Source of the DNA: Felis catus
Lineage: Eukaryota
NCBI RefSeq assembly: GCF_018350175.1
Contig: NC_058369.1
Span: forward strand, 930,001-994,000
DNA: 64,000 nucleotides
Reading direction: 5' to 3'
Position numbers and translations under genes: made by a program. Numbering within the stretch: the first letter of the stretch is position 1; each line of letters opens with the position of its first letter. This document shows positions 17,386 through 63,236 of the stretch, piece after piece. Under the pieces are notes generated by a model that saw nothing but the letters and a program-made list of their open reading frames with translations, made no database searches and was not told the DNA's origin.

Positions 17386-18089
<704 letters not shown>

Positions 18090-43617: not shown

Positions 43618-43689
43618 CATGCTGAAATCCAGAAGATCACTGAGCTCCTTGTCCGTGCCCACGGGTGCCATCCTCTGTGGCTGGTTCAT
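43618..43689 (-). CDS. TCF3: TCF3 exon 2 CDS with start codon and AD1 LxxLL motif (exon begins ~43749)
   Basis: [24 protein letters not shown]; donor |gtaagc; acceptor ctctgctctcgtag| at 43750/43749. Confidence 0.98.
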
Positions 43690-44499: not shown

Positions 44500-46450
44500 C
44501 GGGAATTATTTTTAAGCAACTTTGAAAACATCCCTTGCCTCCCGCTGGAGGAGGGTGGAGAGGGGGTCCCCCAAACCAGGGTTTCCCCCGCACGGTCCCA
44601 GGGGCCTCCGCTCTACAACGGGGGTGGAGAGTCACCTGCCTGGCCCCATCCCCCCCAGAGAAGGGAACGGAATATGTCTCCGTCGTCCCGCGGACAGAGC
44701 GCGGGGCCCCTCCGGCTTCGGTGCCGAGCTCCCAGGCTGGGGGCGGCCCCACGGAAACCACGGAGGCTGCGGGGGAGAGGGGGTTCCAAGGTCGAGGGAG
44801 ACCCAACTCCAGGAGCGGAGGAACCCCCGCTTTGTTTGCCAACCAGGGGCGAGGTGTGAAACGGCCGCCCCGGCGCACCCCCTCCCCCAAGTCCTCCCTC
44901 TCTCGCAGGGCGTGTGAAACTGACTTTGTTGAGGAGTACGAAACCGCACTTTTTTGTGGGGTGGTTGAAACCGATTTCAGGGCCGACCCGGGGGAGGGGG
45001 GGCACTGGAAACTTGTGGGGTGTCGCCGGACCTCGGGGGGCTGGAAACGGGCTCGGGGCGCAGAGGGCCCGGCCGCCGGCCCCAGGGGGAGGCCCCCGCG
45101 CCCGCGCGCCCCGCCCCGCCCCCACCCCCCCGCCGCGGCCGGTGCAGGCGCGCGGCCCGGGGGCCTTTGAAGCCGGGCCGCCGCCGCCGCCGCCCCGGGC
45201 CGCGCTAACGCGGAGCAGATGTTCGCGGCCCCCGCCCCCCCCCGCCCGGCCCGGCCCGGCCCTCAACCTGCGCCCGCGGGCCGCGCCGCCGCACCTTCCC
45301 CGCCAGACAAAAGGCCGCCCCCCCGCCCCCCACCAACTCCGGCGCCGGCGGAGGGGGCCCCGCCGCGGCCCCGCCCGCCGCGCCGCAAACTTTCGCCAAG
45401 TGCGGCCCGGCGGGCGGGGGGCGCGCCGCCGAAAGTTGGAGAACAATGACGCCCGGCCCGCGGCGCGGCGGGGGCGAACTCCCGGACGGCGCCCCCGCCC
45501 CAACTTCCCCGGGCCCGCGGCGGCGGCGGCTGGGGGGGGGGCGGCGGGGGCGGGGGGGGGCGACCAACTTCGCACAAAGCCACGGGGCCCGCAGTCCCGG
45601 CGTGCTCACCTGCTCGGCGCTGCCCGGCCCGCAGTGCGCGGGGGGCGGCGGCATGAACGGCCCCCCCGGACAAAGGGGCGTCGCGCCGGGCCCCCGAGGG
45701 TCGCGCGTGGGCGGCGGCAGCGGCGCGCGTGGCCCGGCCCTCCCCGCGGCCCGCCCCGAGGGGCCCGTGCGCGGCCGGGACGCTGGCGGGGGCGGCGTGT
45801 GAGGAGCTCGCGGTGCCCGCCGCCCGCGTCGCTGGGCTCGGTCCGGCCCGCTACGCTCGCGGCCGCCGCCGCTGCCTCATCTTCCTGCGGCGGGAGACAT
45901 GTTCCGCCCCCCGCCCCGCGCGCTGCCCCGCCCCCGCCAGGCCCCGCCCGCGCCCCGCCCCGCGCCCCGCCCGGCGTCGCCGCGGATCCCTCCGCCGCCG
46001 CCGCCGCCCGCTCGGCCCGCGCCGGTCTCCGCGGCTCGCCTTCCAGCGCGCCCGCGGCGGCGGCTGGGGCTCGTGAGGCCCGGGCTCTAGGAGCAGGGGC
46101 GCCCGGCCGGGCCTCCAGCAAAAGGCTCGGGGAGGGGGCCGGGACTATCTTCCAGCGCGGAGGCGCACGCAGGATGGAACACAGCCGTGACGCAAGTGGG
46201 AGGGGACCGTGAGATGGAAAGATAAAACACGGCAGCAGTGGCCAATCGGAGGGCGCGAAACCGTGATTGGCGGGCTCGTCGGCCATTTCTGGGGCTGCCC
46301 CGCCCCCTGTCCCGCCTCCGCGGCGTCTAGCGAAGAAGGAGGTGGGACTCTCGGAGCGTTAGGCCTAGAGAACCGGTGGGGGGGGGGGTGTGGGTTTTGG
46401 GGTTTTATTTGTCAGGTTTGCTTTGCCGCCCGCGCGGCCTCTTGGGCTGG
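44500..46450. promoter_or_regulatory. TCF3 CpG-island promoter
   Basis: GC boxes; GTGACGCA ~46187; CCAAT ~46242 and ATTGG ~46266; GGCGCGAAA (E2F) 46252-46260; GCCATTT (YY1-like) ~46282. Confidence 0.85.
45610..45900 (-). other. TCF3: TCF3 non-coding exon 1 (5' boundary uncertain)
   Basis: Donor GCAG|GTGAGC at 45610/45609 inside the CpG island, downstream of the promoter motifs. Confidence 0.7.
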
Positions 46451-54715: not shown

Positions 54716-56199
54716 CCCAGCCATCAGGGCTGAAGCCTGGGCCCTTCACCTCCACCTGCCTTTGTGAGTGGACAGGACCCGTCCCTGCCTCTGGACTCCC
54801 CATTATGGTCCCTAGTCTTCCCCACATGGGGAGCCTGGGAGACACTCCTCATGGGCTGGGGGACCCTGAACAAGTCTCCCCATTGTGAGGCTCAGTTCAC
54901 CATCTGTAGAATGTTTGTGGCACCTGGGACTGGATGTGCTGGACATGGGTGCTGGCGGGGAGGCGGGGGGAGGGGACCGCAGGCTGAAGGCCCTGGCCCC
55001 TCAGGGCTCACAGCCAGCCTAGGGGAGAGACGATGACGAAGGAGTCACTTTACAGGCATCCGAAGCTGTCCTGGGGGTCAGAACAAGTGGCCAGAGAGAG
55101 TCTCAGGGAGGGGCTATGGAGGCTGGCAGTGATCTTGGTAGGCTCACGGCTAGTGCAAAGGCCCTGAGGCCCAGGGCCATCCTCAGCCAGGCCTCTGGGT
55201 CCCTGACTCCAGGCCACACGGTGAGCTGACTTGCTGACCCTGTGCACTTGCTCCCCAGTTAAGGGCCCCCCCCCCCGCCAGGCCACGGGGAAGGCGGTGG
55301 GCAGGGGCTGCGGCAGAGAGCACTGGGCAGAAGCGGAGAGCTGGGCAGCCCCCCACCAGGACGATCCACGGTCCAGATCTACATGTCCCCAACCCTGCCG
55401 GCACAGCCATCCCGCCGAACCTCCAAACCTCCCTGACAACAGAATCCATCACTGCAGAAATATCCTGGGGCCTGCAGTTTAATCACTCTCTGATTTGCAT
55501 TTTTGCATATTAACGACGGCAGAGCAGCTAATTTTGCCGCAGTATTTTAAAGGTGCAGAAACTCTGGAACTGTGCAGGGGGTGAGGACAGGTCCCTCACT
55601 CAGCCTGCGGGCTGTGGGCTCCCAGGGATAGGCTCCCTGCTGGTCAGTGACACCGCTGCCCTGGAGTCACAAGGACCCCACCCCTCAGGAGTCACGGTGT
55701 CTTCCGCTCTTGAAATCGGGCATCAACCTCCGCAGCGGCCAGGGGAACGGGATTCTGAAATTTTCCACGGGTGGCTGCACCCTGAGCACCCCGTACTGGG
55801 AAAGCTTAGGATCAGAATCTGTCTTAAACCTTTGGATTCTGTCGCGGCCTCTGATGGCGCTAGCATCCAAGGCCTCTCTGCAGCTCCAGCAGAGAGCTGC
55901 ACCCTACATCTGGCCCTGGCGGGCTCTCAGCTCAGCCCCGGGCGTGCCTTTCAGCTCCCACTGGTTGCCCACCTCTGGGCCTTTGCACATGCTGTTCCAT
56001 CACCTGCCGGGCTTTTCCTTTTCCAACATCGTCTCTCCGGAGAGGCCCTCGTGCCACCACGCATGGGTCCAGTCCAGTCACCTACACATCCCCACCGTGA
56101 AGCCGGGAAACTTGACCGGCCAGGCCAGTGCTCCGGGTCACACGGGGTCCTCCCGGTGGCCGCAAGGGTGCTGGGCCGCGGAGGGGCTCCGGGAGTAGG

Positions 56200-56800
56200 G
56201 CTAAGGCCTAAGGTGCGCCCTTGGGTTCGTGCTGCCACCTAGTGGCGCCCCTGGGTGAGGCCGCGGGTCTTCCGCGGAGCCCACACGGCTCTCGGGGACC
56301 CCTGGGAAGCCCCTGGGGAGACGGAGAGACTACCTCGAGGGCTGGACTCCCACGGGCGCGACAGAGGGGCTTCGACGGCGAGGAGGGAAACGGGGGCCGA
56401 CCCTGCGGCCTGACCGCCAGGCGCGCGCGCAGCCCGGCGGGACGCGCAGCACGGCCCGCGCCGCGGCCCAAGTCCACCAGGGGGCGCCCGCCGCCCGCGG
56501 CAGCCAGGGCCCCCCCCCCCCCCGCGCGTGCCCGTGCTCCGCGTGAGCGACCGAGGACGCGCGCCCTGGTGCTCCCGTGCACGTGCGTGCACATTTGCGT
56601 GTCCGCACGTGCGAGGCCCGTTTGTGTTCGTTCGCGGCTCATCCGCTTACCTGCCCTCAGGGCACAGTCACAGGTGCGCGGCTTCGTGTGCTGCGCAGCG
56701 CATCCACGCACGCGCATGTGCCGGCAAACGTGCCTGTCCGCAGGTTCTGGCATTTTCTGCATGTTCACGTAGGTGCGTGTCCCAGCTCGGCGTCCCCTCT
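56200..56800. promoter_or_regulatory. Intergenic CpG island with two CTCF motifs
   Basis: CCACTAGGTGGCAGC on minus at 56231-56245; CCACCAGGGGGCGC on plus at 56474-56487. Confidence 0.65.
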
Positions 56801-59800
56801 GGTTAGCGCTGGCCGGCGCTTGATCCTCTGCCCCACCGCCTTGCTTTCCTTTGTTGACTGACCACCGCCTGTCCTCCCGTGTCGAGCGGTGCTCTCAAGG
56901 CACCTCTGGTGTCTGCGCCCGCTGGGCACCCAATAAACCGCTCCGAGGCCCCCAGAGGCATGATTAGGGGGAAATCTATGCCCAGCTCCAGCAACCCAGC
57001 GGAAGAGGACCAGTTCCGGACAGCCTGCTGAGCTGGGGGAAAAACCCCTCTCTCGTAGCCCGCCTGCCTCTCCACTCCTCTGGCGTGGGAGGGGCCTCCT
57101 CCCTCCTTACCATTCCCTCTCTACCCCACGAACTCCTATTCGTACTGCAGGGTCCTGTGCTATTGACCCTTCACCTAGGACGCGTTCCCTGGTCCCCCGG
57201 GTGTGAACGCTGAGCGGGCAGGGCATCGGCTTCCCCCCGGCTCACAGACCTGCTGGGTGAGCTCCGTGGTGGGGTGGCGGCTGCTGTAACTGGGCGCCCA
57301 GGCCACGTCTGCAGACAATGGTTCATTAAAGGTGACTTCCAAGGATGGGTGAATGCTGGTTCCCAGACCCCACCCTCGTGGCTGTTAACGCTTAAAGAGG
57401 CTCTGATGTGAAGCCTGTCCCTTCCTCTCTCTGTCCTTCCCTCTGTCTCTCCTTCCCTCTCTCCCTGTCCCTTCTCTTCCTCTCCTCCCTCGCTCTGTCC
57501 CTCTGTCACCCCCTGGCCCTGGCCACCCCTCCAGCCCCCGTGGGCCATCTCCTTGGCAACGGTGGCCACAGGGTCAGCCATTCGATCAATCTCCTCTCAC
57601 CCCGGAGGCCCCAACCCTGGACCCGGAAGGTGACGAGGAAGTGGGGTCAGGCGTGGGTGTCTGGGTGGGGGGAACGCCGTGGGGTTAGCACAGGGGTCAC
57701 TCAGGCAGAGTGGTGGTGGGGTCAGCAGGGTCAGAGGTCAAGCGAGCCCTGGGCAGGCACTGAAGGTATGACCCTCCCAGGGCGTCCGTTTCCCCAAGGC
57801 AGGGGCTCTCTGGCTTACAGCCTCTATGCGGGGTCCAGTCCGGTTCCTCGGAGCCCTCGGGGTGTGTGGGGCATGGCCCCCCCCAGGCGAGAGCAAGGCC
57901 CAGTCCTCACCCCAGTTTACAGCTGGTAACAAGACCACCCCTCCAGGAACCGGTCAGGGCGGAGGCTGGAAACCGGGGGTGCGGACACAGCACACGGGGC
58001 GATCAGGTTCACATCCCACCCCCTGAGCCGCCTGCCCTCACTGTCCCAGAAGGTTCTGCCATCACTGCCTCTGAGCAGTCCACCATTACTGCTTCTAGCA
58101 TATTCCATCGTTACTGCTTCTGGAACAGTCCTCCATCATGGCCTCTGGAAGAGTCCACCTTTCCAGTGGTGAGAGGCTCACTGTTCTCGCAAGGCAGGAA
58201 GCTGTCCGGGGCCTTTAAGGTTCTCCCTTTCAGAAGCGGGGAGGCAGACAGGCGGGCGGGCAGGGGAAGGTCCCCCAAACACGCCAGGAGGACGTGGCTT
58301 TCTCCCGGGTTCTCCAGAGCCGTGGGGACAGCTCAGCGGGGCAGCTGGGCGATGTGGGGGCCACAGGGCCCCCCACCTCAGGTCGATCGGCTGGGCCCTG
58401 CAGGGACATCGATTGCTAAGTATGTTTGTATAGATCCTGGGACAGGTAGCCCAGGCTTGAAAGGGGAGGGGAGGCAGGGCCAAGGGGGCCCTCTGGGGAC
58501 CTTGGGGGGCTGAGTGGAGATGCTGGCGGGAGAGGGGGCACCGGCGTGCAGAAGATACCTCATCTGCTCGCTCCCCTTTCTGAGCCGCAGTTTCCCCATC
58601 CGGACAAGGGGGAGGGGGTGCAGATGTGGAGGAGGTTTGCAGTGGGTGGGCCTTCTGGGGTCCCCCTTTCCAGAGGAGCCCCCCCCCGCCCCCCAGCCGG
58701 AGAGGTCAGGCTGCTGGCTCCGGGCCACACAGTCTGGAGGTGGGGGCCGCCGCGCGCTTCGCGGACGCGGGGAGACGGTCTTTCCCCAGAGGCTCCCCCC
58801 GCCGCCGGCTCCGCGGGACGCTGGCCCNNNNNNNNNNNNNNNNNNNNNNNNNNNNNNNNNNNNNNNNNNNNNNNNNNNNNNNNNNNNNNNNNNNNNNNNN
58901 NNNNNNNNNNNNNNNNNNNNNNNNNNNNNNNNNNNNNNNNNNNNNNNNNNNNNNNNNNNNNNNNNNAGCGCGAGGCTTCTTGTAAACGGCTCCCCGCAGG
59001 GCGCGGGGGGCCCGGTGCCCGTGCTCCCCCGGGAGGGGGCGTGGCTAGGCGGTGCCGGGTCTGCGGGTTCGGACGCCGAGGCGCGAGAGGGGTCCCCTGT
59101 AGCCGGGCGGGGGGGGGGGCCTCGCGTACCCCGCCGCATTTATGGAGTGCCTCCTGTATGCCAGGTGTGTGCGGGGCGCACGAAACCAAGAGTCGCTACA
59201 TAGAAACACGTAATCCGCTCCATTATTGTCATTAAACAGTAATACGGCTCAGGAATGTTCCCTGCGGTCCCGTGGAGCCTCTGCGCGCCGCATTTTTTTT
59301 TTGTGGGGGGGGATCTATGATTCCATTATAGAGTCGGGGAAACTGAGGCCGGGCCAGAGAAGCTGAGCCAGAACACGCATGCCCCCGCTCGCTCCCCGGG
59401 GGACTTCTCTGGTGAGGTCATGTGGAGAGCGACGTTTTGGGGGGCCAGCCGGACCACCGTCCCTACCCCTTTCTGCACCTGCACTCCGGGAGGGGGCTGG
59501 CCCCCGGGGGCGGGCAGGACTGAAGGCACGTCGACCCCCAGTGTGGACTGAAGAGGCTGCGAATGGGAAGGGGACGAGTGGAGAGGAACTGACCGTCTTC
59601 TGGGTGTGGGGCTGGGGGCGGCCACTGCACCAGGTGTCCAAGCATCAGGAGAAAGCTCCACTCACCAGAGGCGCAGGCGCTGGCGGGGGACCCGCCATGA
59701 GCTGTAAGCCCCGGCCTCCGCCCACACTCACCCCTGCCAGGCTCCCACAGGCCCAGTTCCAAATGCTCCCACGGCGAACGTTTGCTGATCGACTCCACAA

Positions 59801-60706
59801 CCGTACTTAGCAATAACGGTAATAGTGGTTTAAATCGCAGCTGTTTCGCTTTGGCTTTTGATCACGATCCGGGCCTCGTCCGCCTAAAAACCTCTGTAGG
59901 TCAGTCGTTCCCAGCATGTACTGAGTGGGCCGTATGCCCCAGTGACCCACTGCATCCCCGCAACGGCCCCGAGGCCGCAAATAGCACCGACCTGGTCTAC
60001 AGATGGGGGACAGAGACTCAGGAAGGCGGACACTCTTGTTCCTGGAACCCAGGAGACGAAATTCCAAGCCTGAGCCAGCTGTGTCTGATTGTCGGGCTGC
60101 CTCTAAGAGGAGTGATCATGGGTTTTGAAGGCTCCGAATGTGGGGAAACTGAGGCACAGAGTCACGGAGGGGCCCGAGGGCCTCCCAGAGCTTCAAGGAG
60201 AAGCCAGGAGGAACTTCCAGGCAGACAGTGACGATTAGCCAGGCTTGGGCCACAACCACACAGTACAACCTTGCTCACTTCACCGGGAGCCTCCTACCTG
60301 ACCCTGAAGGGGCCTGACCACAGAGGGAGGGGGCAGGGAGGAGGAGTCTCAGCAGCGGGAGGTCCAGGGAGGGGAGCAGGCTCCTGCCCTGCTACAGGGG
60401 GTTCCAGACCTGACAGCCAGAAAGGCCCTACACACAGCAAGAGCTTAATAGACGCAGAGCAAGGCCCTGTCCAGGGCTCCCAGGCCTCCGGGGAGGAACA
60501 GAGGAGGGGGGAGGGGGCCCAGCCATGCCGGCTCAGAGCGCCCCCTGCCTCCGCACGGGCCCAGGTGGGGCTCCCCCTCCCTCAGGCTGTCTCCCTCTCT
60601 CTCTGCCCTCTGCCCCTCTTTTGTGCTGCCACAGCGGAGGGCCCTGCCTCTCCCACTTCTCAGCTCCGCCTCGGCCCCTCCCAAGTCCCACTCAGGAGCC
60701 ATTAGC

Positions 60707-61326
60707 CAGGGCCTCTCCAGGTGCCCCCCCCCCCACCTCTCCAGGTGCCCTCTGCCCCCCAAGGGCCTCTCCAGGTGCCCCCTCCCTCTCCCCCCCCGCC
60801 CCCCCCCCCGCCTCTCCAGGTGCCCCCTCCCCCCCAAGGGCCTCTCCAGGTGCTCCCTCCCCCCCAGGACCTCTCCAGGTGCCTCCTCCCCACTCCCCCC
60901 CAGGGCCTCTCCAGGTGCCCCTCCCCCCCAAGGCCTCTCCAGGTGCCCCCTCCCCCCTTCCCCCCCAAGGGCCTCTCCAGGTGCCCCCTCCCCCCAGGAC
61001 CTCTCCAGGTGCCCCCTTCCCTCTCCCCACCAGGGCCTCTCCAGGTGCCCCTCCCCCCCAAGGCCTCTCCAGGTGCCCCCTCCCCCCTTCCCCCCCAAGG
61101 GCCTCTCCAGGTGCCCCTCCCCTCCAAGGCCTCTCCAGGTGCCCCCTCCCCCCTTCCCCCCCAAGGGCCTCTCCAGGTGCCCCCTCCCCCCAGGACCTCT
61201 CCAGGTGCCCCCTTCCCTCTCCCCCCCAGGGCCTCTCCAGGTGCCCCTCCCCCCCAAGGCCTCTCCAGGTGCCCCCTCCCCCCTTCCCCCACAAGGGCCT
61301 CACCAGGTGCCCCCACCAAGGGCCTC
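60707..61326. repeat. GC-rich minisatellite, 19 monomers with core CCTCTCCAGGTGCCCC and a ~130-bp 4-monomer higher-order unit
   Basis: Counted directly; aaggg-headed monomers start at 60836, 60967, 61097, 61163 and 61293. Confidence 0.97.
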
Positions 61327-63236
61327 CTTTGGGGGGGGGGTGCCTGCTGCCATCAGGCCTGCCGCAGAGTTTGTGTCCCACGCGGGGCCTCCCTATGGGC
61401 CAGGCGCCCGTGGTGGGGACAGGGGCACAGGTGAGCCTCACAGTGTCTGGCGTCTCATCTCCCTTCTGCCAAATCTTCCAGGCTGTTCTCCCCCTCACGT
61501 CCCGCTAGGGAAACTGAGGCACAGACAGGGCAGAGGTGCCAGAGGAGGGCCAAAGTCCCTGGGGATGGTGGAGACGCCTCGGGCGGAGGCCGGGGGCTGG
61601 ACGGATCCCCCCAGGTTCCTTCCCGGTCAGATCCCCTGTCCCGCCAGGCCCCCCACACCCCCACTCGAGGGGCTGCAGCCTGTGAGGAGCAGGCTTTGTC
61701 TACGCCAGAGGGGAGACAGAGTTCTTGGCCAAGGGAACAGCAGGGGCCAAGGTCCGGGGCAGGAGGCAGAATGTGGAAGGAAGAAGGAGGCAGCGCTGAG
61801 GCTGGCCGGGTTTGGGCCTCTGGGGTCTGCTGGGCTGTGGTGAGGGCTTAGGTCTTTGTCTGGGGTGCACTGGGGAGCCGCAGTGAGGGGGGATGAGGAA
61901 GGAACCATGCTTTGACCAGGCCCTCTGGGTGCTGGAGGGGAAGGGACAGTGGGGGCAGGGGGGAGGCAGGGGCCAGGCAGAGCCTGAGCTAGGGCAGAGA
62001 TAGACAGGGAGAGATAGGCCAGGTCTGCCTTCCCGCCCAGACCCTGAGCTCCAGGGGGGGAGCCGGGCGGCCGGGAAGGGGTTCCGGCCAGTGGCCATGG
62101 CCCTGCTGGCCCCTCCGAAGCAGTAATTAAGGGCTCCCGGCGTCCCCGCGGCATGATGTATGTGCGCCTTAACTAATCATTTATTAGGTCACTGATGTTT
62201 CGTCAATATTAATTCATTTATTTAAACAACTCGGCTCCGTAATGAAGATGTTGCCCGAGAGGGGAGGCCGGTGGGTGGCGGGCCTTGGCTGCAGGGAGGG
62301 GGCTCAGACCCGGGTCTGGGGGTCTCCAGACCACCCCCACCCCAAGCTGGGCGCGGGGAGCCAGCTGAGGATGAAACGTCCCCGGAGGTCAGGGTTATGC
62401 CGACACCCTCCTGGGCCAAAAGGGAGACTAAGGCCGGACCAGAAGATGAGCGGCCTCGAGGCGCCTGGGCAGCCCGTGAGGATGGGCCGCGGACCCCCAC
62501 CCTGCTGCCCTGAAGGCGGATCCCAGCTCGGGGGCCACCACCTAAAATGCTTTTTCTTAACCCCTGCTGTGCCCAGTGCCCCCCGCCCCGCCTGCTGGGG
62601 GATGTGTCCAGGGGGACATCTCAGAACAAAAGTCATCACATCCTTCCTCTGCTCAAGAGCTGCCTGTGTCTCCCCAGGCGGAGAAACCGGAAGGCCTCTG
62701 CCTCTGCTGACCTCCCTGACCCCCACCCTGCGTCCCAGGGGCCCCCATCACGTCTCTATCACCACTTGTCTTGGCGAATTATTTGTTGAAAACCTCTTTG
62801 TCGTCTGCTTTCCCCACCGGCCTCGCCTTGGGGAGGGAAAGGACACCATCCCAGCGTGTGGGTGACACTCGGCAAACGCCCCCTCCCCCTCAGCAGGCAC
62901 TTGGGGGGCCCGGTAATTTCTCCGCAGCACTGCTAACGGTTCCTGGTGCACCCGGGGAAGGGGCCCTTCCAAGTCGGCTTCTGGAGACACCGGCCGGGAG
63001 GGCCCCCGTGGCCTGACGGCTGAGCGTGGCAGTGACCACTGTGCGGTGGGTCCCTCACAGTCCCCCACTTTGAGGACAACCCGCCTCACCGAGCGAGCCT
63101 GGTCTTGGGGTCGGCTTGCGGGGACCCCGCACCGAGACGCCATGACTGCAGCGTCTGAGGTCCCCGAACAGGAGATTCGCATCGTGAGGGGTTCCGCGTC
63201 CTTCCTCGGATTCTGCCGTGTCACAAATACACGTAG

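Follow-up and report, generated by a model that had tools for sequence, protein, structure and literature searches.

Repeats dense in transcription factor motifs have been described at several human loci. The closest system is the set of human tandem repeats rich in ZEB1 motifs, which are reported to load repressor additively and to serve as platforms for it (Balestrieri et al. 2018, Cell 173:1150, as related in PMC12064536, PMC10250210, PMC7459422 and 10.1101/2024.02.24.581901). A second is the VNTR in intron 1 of human CDH2, with 24 units over 528 bp, whose 23 ZEB1 motifs have EMSA and public ChIP support (PMC12064536). G-quadruplex-forming GC-rich minisatellites of the CEB1 type cluster at human chromosome ends (PMC3486850), and at the ATRX-bound psi-zeta VNTR length can matter (PMC9203812). 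Among about 70,000 human VNTRs 2,980 are expression-linked, with a 7.9-fold enrichment within 2 kb of start sites (10.1101/2020.12.16.423078); function is the exception among VNTRs.

The motif at issue, CAGGTG/CACCTG, has more than one reader. E47 homodimers prefer CACCTG (PMC8431614, PMC8283981), and CAGGTG is a high-affinity motif for ZEB1, which binds two E-boxes via two finger clusters, at least one of the boxes being CAGGTG/A (PMC7459422). An earlier note on this DNA had called CAGGTG the preferred E47 site and a ZEB site, and on both points it agrees with the literature, as does the ability of dense motif repeats to recruit ZEB1, reported for the human tandem repeats. The literature consulted on E47 sites gave no precise flanking-base preference, and how well the C and C flanks would suit E47 is therefore left aside.

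We analysed a minisatellite of 19 CAGGTG-bearing units in a 64-kb stretch of DNA, hereafter the window (C2:930,001-994,000 of a 2.43-Gb genome). Like the human ZEB1-motif repeats it carries many identical CAGGTG words at high density, and additive ZEB1 loading is possible in principle; whereas the human repeats have reported binding and lie at epithelial genes, this array has TCF3 and an ONECUT gene as neighbours and is known here from sequence alone. It resembles the CDH2 VNTR in being lineage-specific, of similar size and with a ZEB1 motif in nearly every unit, but the latter is intronic, carries hormone-response and RBPJ motifs and mostly has CAGGTA, in contrast to the CAGGTG and C-runs found here (PMC12064536). 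With CEB1-type minisatellites it shares a high GC content (76% here), strand skew, a location close to the end of a contig, unit variants (24-45 bp here) and G-quadruplex potential, although it is short, at 19 units, and its quadruplexes are known by score (PMC3486850). Both the array and the psi-zeta VNTR of the alpha-globin cluster are G-rich tandem repeats that lie between genes, upstream of one of them and in GC-rich surroundings. The psi-zeta repeat is established to vary in length, to bind ATRX and to affect expression, while the present array is known as sequence (PMC9203812). The array is thus a further case of a class of motif-dense minisatellites already known in human.

Results

Structure of the array

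The array lies 0.99 Mb into a 169-Mb contig and is called subtelomeric on the basis of this distance to the contig start. Its units run head to tail at one locus with a GC content of 0.76, which makes it a GC-rich minisatellite near a contig end. The features, in window coordinates, are as follows.

60707..61326, plus strand: single-locus, GC-rich minisatellite in which each of 19 units (24-45 bp) holds one CAGGTG (sequence, TRF, pattern search)
60708..60715, plus strand: 8-bp direct repeat, left copy bounding the array, doubling as linker within many units (sequence)
60718..60846, plus strand: units 1-4, the irregular and more diverged array end (unit cutting; C-run length variant in another sample)
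60847..60977, plus strand: higher-order unit 1, units 5-8, 131 bp (unit comparison)
60978..61107, plus strand: higher-order unit 2, units 9-12, 130 bp (unit comparison)
61108..61173, plus strand: 66-bp half unit, units 13-14 (unit comparison)
61174..61303, plus strand: higher-order unit 3, units 15-18, 130 bp, at edit distance 3 from higher-order unit 2 (unit comparison)
61319..61326, plus strand: 8-bp direct repeat, right copy, closing the array as a partial unit (sequence)

CAGGTG occurs 19 times, always on the plus strand, between 60,718 and 61,309 (the last site starting at 61,304), a density of 19 per 592 bp. Its context is TCCAGGTGC in 18 units and ACCAGGTGC in one. In the window as a whole there are 109 CAGGTG matches, where 100 shuffles lead one to expect 72.8; 19 of the 109 belong to the array. 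TRF reports periods of 28, 66, 130 and 196 at the array. The higher-order copies (131, 130 and 130 bp) differ by edit distances of 6, 3 and 7; units 7, 11 and 17 are identical to one another, and likewise units 8, 12 and 14. In these respects the earlier note had read the sequence correctly: it claimed a CAGGTG in every monomer in one orientation, a mean spacing of about 32.5 bp (we measure 32.56 bp), a higher-order repeat of about 130 bp with a 66-bp half unit, and G-runs on the other strand. It had also equated the spacing with about three helical turns, and this did not hold. The 18 distances between E-boxes are 28 bp (six times), 38 (four), 36 (three), 30 (two), 24, 29 and 45, with none of 31-32, so that three turns is only an average of 2.7, 3.4 and 3.6. 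No helical phasing of the E-boxes was found at any of seven periods from 10.0 to 11.0 bp (Rayleigh p 0.38-0.77), which rules out a phased homotypic enhancer cluster with its sites on one helical face.

The plus strand of the array is C-rich, with 44 C-runs of at least 3 and 2 CpG, and the minus strand is G-rich. The G4Hunter score of -1.53 is the most extreme for 620 bp in the 64-kb window (|score| 1.53-1.55), and five non-overlapping canonical G-quadruplex motifs lie on the minus strand. In G-quadruplex potential the array ranks 5th of 22 local arrays. The minus strand is accordingly predicted to be G-quadruplex-prone, with strong potential. Other roles were considered and set aside. Folding is weak as a basis for a hairpin role (-9.5 and -16.8 kcal/mol per 135 nt, raw energies without shuffle control). 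Stop-free stretches of 216-416 codons within 1.3 kb run through all six frames and translate into low-complexity Pro/Gly-rich sequence, as expected because the repeat is GC-rich, and a coding array was rejected on the reading of these frames. Pyrimidines precede CAG in every unit of the plus strand, as in a ladder of splice acceptors, but there is no known transcript there. A short AT-richer patch at 59,790-59,880, 0.9 kb to the left, stands out from its GC-rich surroundings.

A single locus, and the array in other samples

Every one of the 13 genomic matches to a two-unit core pattern falls at the array locus. A DNA search returned 14 non-self matches, the long ones 64-72% alike and falling in other C-rich arrays, the rest short flank hits. 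With only this similarity to other C-rich arrays, and with the core pattern nowhere else in the genome, a dispersed repeat family can be dismissed. In two other runs of the same species contigs pass from the unique left flank into the array; one same-species contig set has a 2-base loss in the first C-run of the array, and an inner contig piece of 160 bp (61,131-61,290) from one of these runs shows zero differences. Among short-read contigs from four runs no piece spans the array in any of the four, and small C-run indels occur in two. Raw short reads, of which about 1 in 100 of the run was sampled, are swamped by poly-C reads at 60,778-60,854. A run from a second organism, X23, has 20 differences per 121 bases on the left flank (83% alike) and zero depth across 61,009-61,470, where the same-species runs have gaps too; it bridges the array by a joint of only 21 letters, too few to be relied on, and its word share of 0.09 carries no evidential weight. 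As a means of dating the array this run was set aside. The copy-number variability that the earlier note suggested for the array is not supported by these samples, since the variants are of C-run length only and come from short-read contigs, none of which spans the array.

Neighbouring genes and a candidate boundary

The array lies in an intergenic gap of 77 kb, and its nearest gene is TCF3. The features to the left of it are:

17552..17740, minus strand: bHLH exon of TCF3 (protein search)
43687..43689, minus strand: start codon of TCF3 (gene reading)
45001..46100, minus strand: CpG island in which we place the promoter and first exon of TCF3 (CpG content)
56232..56245, minus strand: CTCF-consensus motif in reverse orientation, facing TCF3, left half of a predicted divergent boundary (consensus scan)
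56474..56487, plus strand: CTCF-consensus motif in forward orientation, facing the array and ONECUT3, right half, in a CpG-rich patch (consensus scan)

The bHLH exon matches E2-alpha at 60 of 63 residues, the best of 8 hits, and we infer a TCF3 start site near 45,900, about 14.8 kb from the array; the earlier note, with TCF3 some 15 kb away, was right on this. It was right as well about an ONECUT gene on the other side: a CUT domain lies at C2:1,054,192 with an ONECUT-type homeodomain downstream, and the start codon is 62 kb to the right of the array. We take this gene to be ONECUT3, a name that comes, here as in the note, from human synteny. Also to the right, at a distance of 0.8 kb, an AT-rich patch with several TAAT/ATTA homeodomain-type cores (window about 62,000-62,300) interrupts the GC-rich surroundings; from its sequence it looks like a conserved enhancer, and it would be the nearest target of a repressor bound to the array.

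Exact matches to a CTCF consensus were collected across 1.464 Mb, a pair being two sites within 500 bp. There are 40 sites and one divergent pair only, at 56,232-56,487, against 10 sites and no pair for the reversed consensus. The pair lies 4.2 kb to the left of the array, between it and the TCF3 promoter, within a CpG-rich patch (56,001-57,000, CpG o/e 0.86). The call "divergent" follows the motif-orientation convention of PMC6691997, and divergent CTCF clusters are a signature of domain boundaries, of varying insulation strength (PMC9279147). The interval 56,232-56,487 is thus predicted as a candidate boundary separating TCF3 from ONECUT3. If the boundary is real, the array falls on the ONECUT3 side and any action of it would more likely face ONECUT3; an action on TCF3 becomes less likely because the divergent CTCF-like pair intervenes.

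E2-box arrays are common in the region

How unusual is such an array next to such a gene? We took a census of TRF arrays of at least 200 bp and period at least 10 across C2:130,001-1,594,000 (1.464 Mb). Four of the 22 arrays found have an E2-box, CAGGTG/CACCTG, in most units:

C2:220,048: 7 sites
C2:885,321: 42 sites
the array studied: 19 sites
C2:1,526,447: 8 sites

The second is denser than the array studied and lies 105 kb from it; it is a 1-kb minisatellite (C2:885,321-886,322) whose 42 CACCTG adjoin a CpG-rich kilobase at C2:884,001. Judged by the other three arrays, an E2-box array would fall within 15 kb of a given promoter, to its left or right, with a chance of 6%, and inside the 77-kb intergenic gap with a chance of 15%, both computed before counting that there are many genes for E2-box binders. 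Four of 22 nearby arrays with an E2-box, one of them denser and 105 kb away, leave a special link to TCF3 without support.

CAGGTG is nevertheless somewhat over-represented in the local arrays: of the 22, about 1 would be expected to carry it in this way and 4 do (binomial p 0.018; 0.07 without the array studied). It is also among the top 4 of 98 hexamers with similar background frequency. It seems to be a mildly favoured per-unit word of GC-rich minisatellites, and its excess would be a general property of such arrays and not of TCF3. Genome-wide frequency was measured as triples, not as long arrays. Triple CAGGTG with gaps of 18-40 bp gives 2,683 overlapping matches and the reversed word 463, counts that are not normalised for single-word frequency; triple CAGGAG, not an E-box, gives 2,199 overlapping matches and its control 1,107. 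Eleven of 18 loci on C1, chosen by eye among the first 100 matches listed, hold at least 9 same-strand sites per 620 bp. Many E2-box minisatellites also crowd C1:79.3-88.4 Mb. This stretch is internal to a 239-Mb contig and resembles contig ends in this respect; it may be an old chromosome end. An unrelated C-rich array at C21:114,316,219-114,319,635, with 63 CAGGTG sites plus CAGGTA variants, has both ZEB1-type words and looks more like the human ZEB1 repeats than our array does.

Conservation among units and the array ends

When the units are aligned, none of the 114 cells in the E-box columns has changed, and 113 of 114 are likewise unchanged in the six non-E-box columns that precede them, a comparison of little power in an array this young. 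The E-box is no better kept than the neighbouring bases and nothing singles it out; selection on it is therefore not supported. Units differ from one another only in the length of their C-runs and in the purine linker. One 8-mer stands at both ends of the array, at 60,708 and at 61,319, where the last unit is partial, and these ends match the flanking-direct-repeat model of minisatellite birth of Haber and Louis, as described in PMC3389668.

Discussion

We read the array as a young passenger minisatellite, with an E-box in its seed unit by chance and no real control over TCF3, and give this reading a probability of roughly 0.7. One seed unit likely held a chance E-box between two 8-bp direct repeats, where slippage would have started the array. 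Growth may then have proceeded by slippage of the C-runs and unequal exchange of blocks of two and four units, perhaps aided by G-quadruplexes of the minus strand, and the most recent growth would have been at the right end, since near-identical higher-order copies lie there. Where the DNA is accessible, ZEB1/2 or SNAIL are predicted to bind the array additively, because adjacent sites permit ZEB to bind with both of its hands. The CTCF-like pair, which lies 4.2 kb to the left, would tend to shield the TCF3 promoter from the array. Several points weigh against a mere passenger. There is a mild local excess of CAGGTG (p 0.018; 0.07 without the array studied), the youth of the array leaves the conservation test little power, and the CTCF motifs are consensus matches and boundary strength varies (PMC9279147). 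In human, repressor is reportedly recruited to tandem repeats rich in ZEB1 motifs, and GC-rich VNTRs are over-represented among expression-linked VNTRs, with silencers 2.5-fold enriched (10.1101/2020.12.16.423078).

ZEB-type binding to the array is plausible in light of this literature, and from there it may be asked whether the array has been co-opted as a ZEB/SNAIL platform, on which ZEB1/2 would load additively and damp nearby elements or ONECUT3 in mesenchymal or ZEB-high cells. CAGGTG is a high-affinity ZEB1 word and ZEB1 binds paired E-boxes (PMC7459422), and motif-dense tandem repeats have been reported as repressor platforms. The divergent CTCF-like pair also leaves the array on the same side as ONECUT3, and the mild local excess of CAGGTG would fit. 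Deletion of a human repeat of this kind is said to alter the expression of the neighbouring gene. Yet the ONECUT-type start codon is 62 kb away, and the three further E2-box arrays within 1.46 Mb show that such a layout does not require a target. We regard such a platform as unlikely.

Another way for the array to act would leave the E-boxes aside. Its G-rich strand may fold as G-quadruplexes that need ATRX-type handling, and its length could then weakly affect nearby chromatin. The strong quadruplex score, together with the human precedents at chromosome ends (PMC3486850) and at the psi-zeta VNTR (PMC9203812), speaks for it. Against it, the effect in the comparison was described under ATRX loss, and the array is only 0.6 kb long, intergenic and 15 kb from the promoter, its quadruplexes being a matter of score. 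We hold this to be improbable.

The reading of the earlier note was that the array may be a copy-number-variable enhancer or silencer through which E12/E47 autoregulate TCF3 and set its dosage. The preference of E47 homodimers for CACCTG (PMC8431614, PMC8283981) and the position of TCF3 as the nearest gene, about 15 kb away, are in its favour. Such proximity has a chance of 6-15% before the many genes for E2-box binders are counted, the sites show no helical phasing, a predicted boundary lies in between, and the variants seen are of C-run length, in short-read contigs that do not span the array. A literature search on TCF3/E2A autoregulation with an upstream enhancer or ONECUT3 found nothing, which does not imply absence from print. 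In its boldest form the idea would make the array a lineage-specific, self-tuning TCF3 switch, in which E47 and ZEB/SNAIL vie for the 19 sites and the dosage of E2A follows the copy number. Taken further, the idea would have E2-box minisatellites favoured at GC-rich chromosome ends (4 of 22 arrays) and repeatedly co-opted beside the genes of their binders. Both the dosage dial and this extension seem to us very improbable. Control of TCF3 by the array is not supported, and the interpretation of the earlier note stands in part, in its description of the array, the motif and the neighbours.

An assembly artefact or collapsed multi-locus repeat, suggested by short-read contigs that fail to span the array and by several bins of zero depth, has a negligible chance against a core pattern found 13 of 13 times at one locus, left-flank-anchored pieces entering the array in two runs and an inner 160-bp piece without differences: the 19-copy array is real.

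What, then, would the array mean for the biology of the cat? TCF3 is a dosage-sensitive lymphoid regulator. If the array did tune it, this would be a rare instance of such a regulator autoregulated via a mutable repeat, and would make the array a candidate in variation of feline B-cell biology. Read as a passenger, the array matters little in itself: it adds another motif-bearing minisatellite to a class known from human DNA. Its use is one of calibration: in this region E2-box arrays occur about every 0.4 Mb, so the nearness of one to an E-box gene is no evidence of a tie between them.
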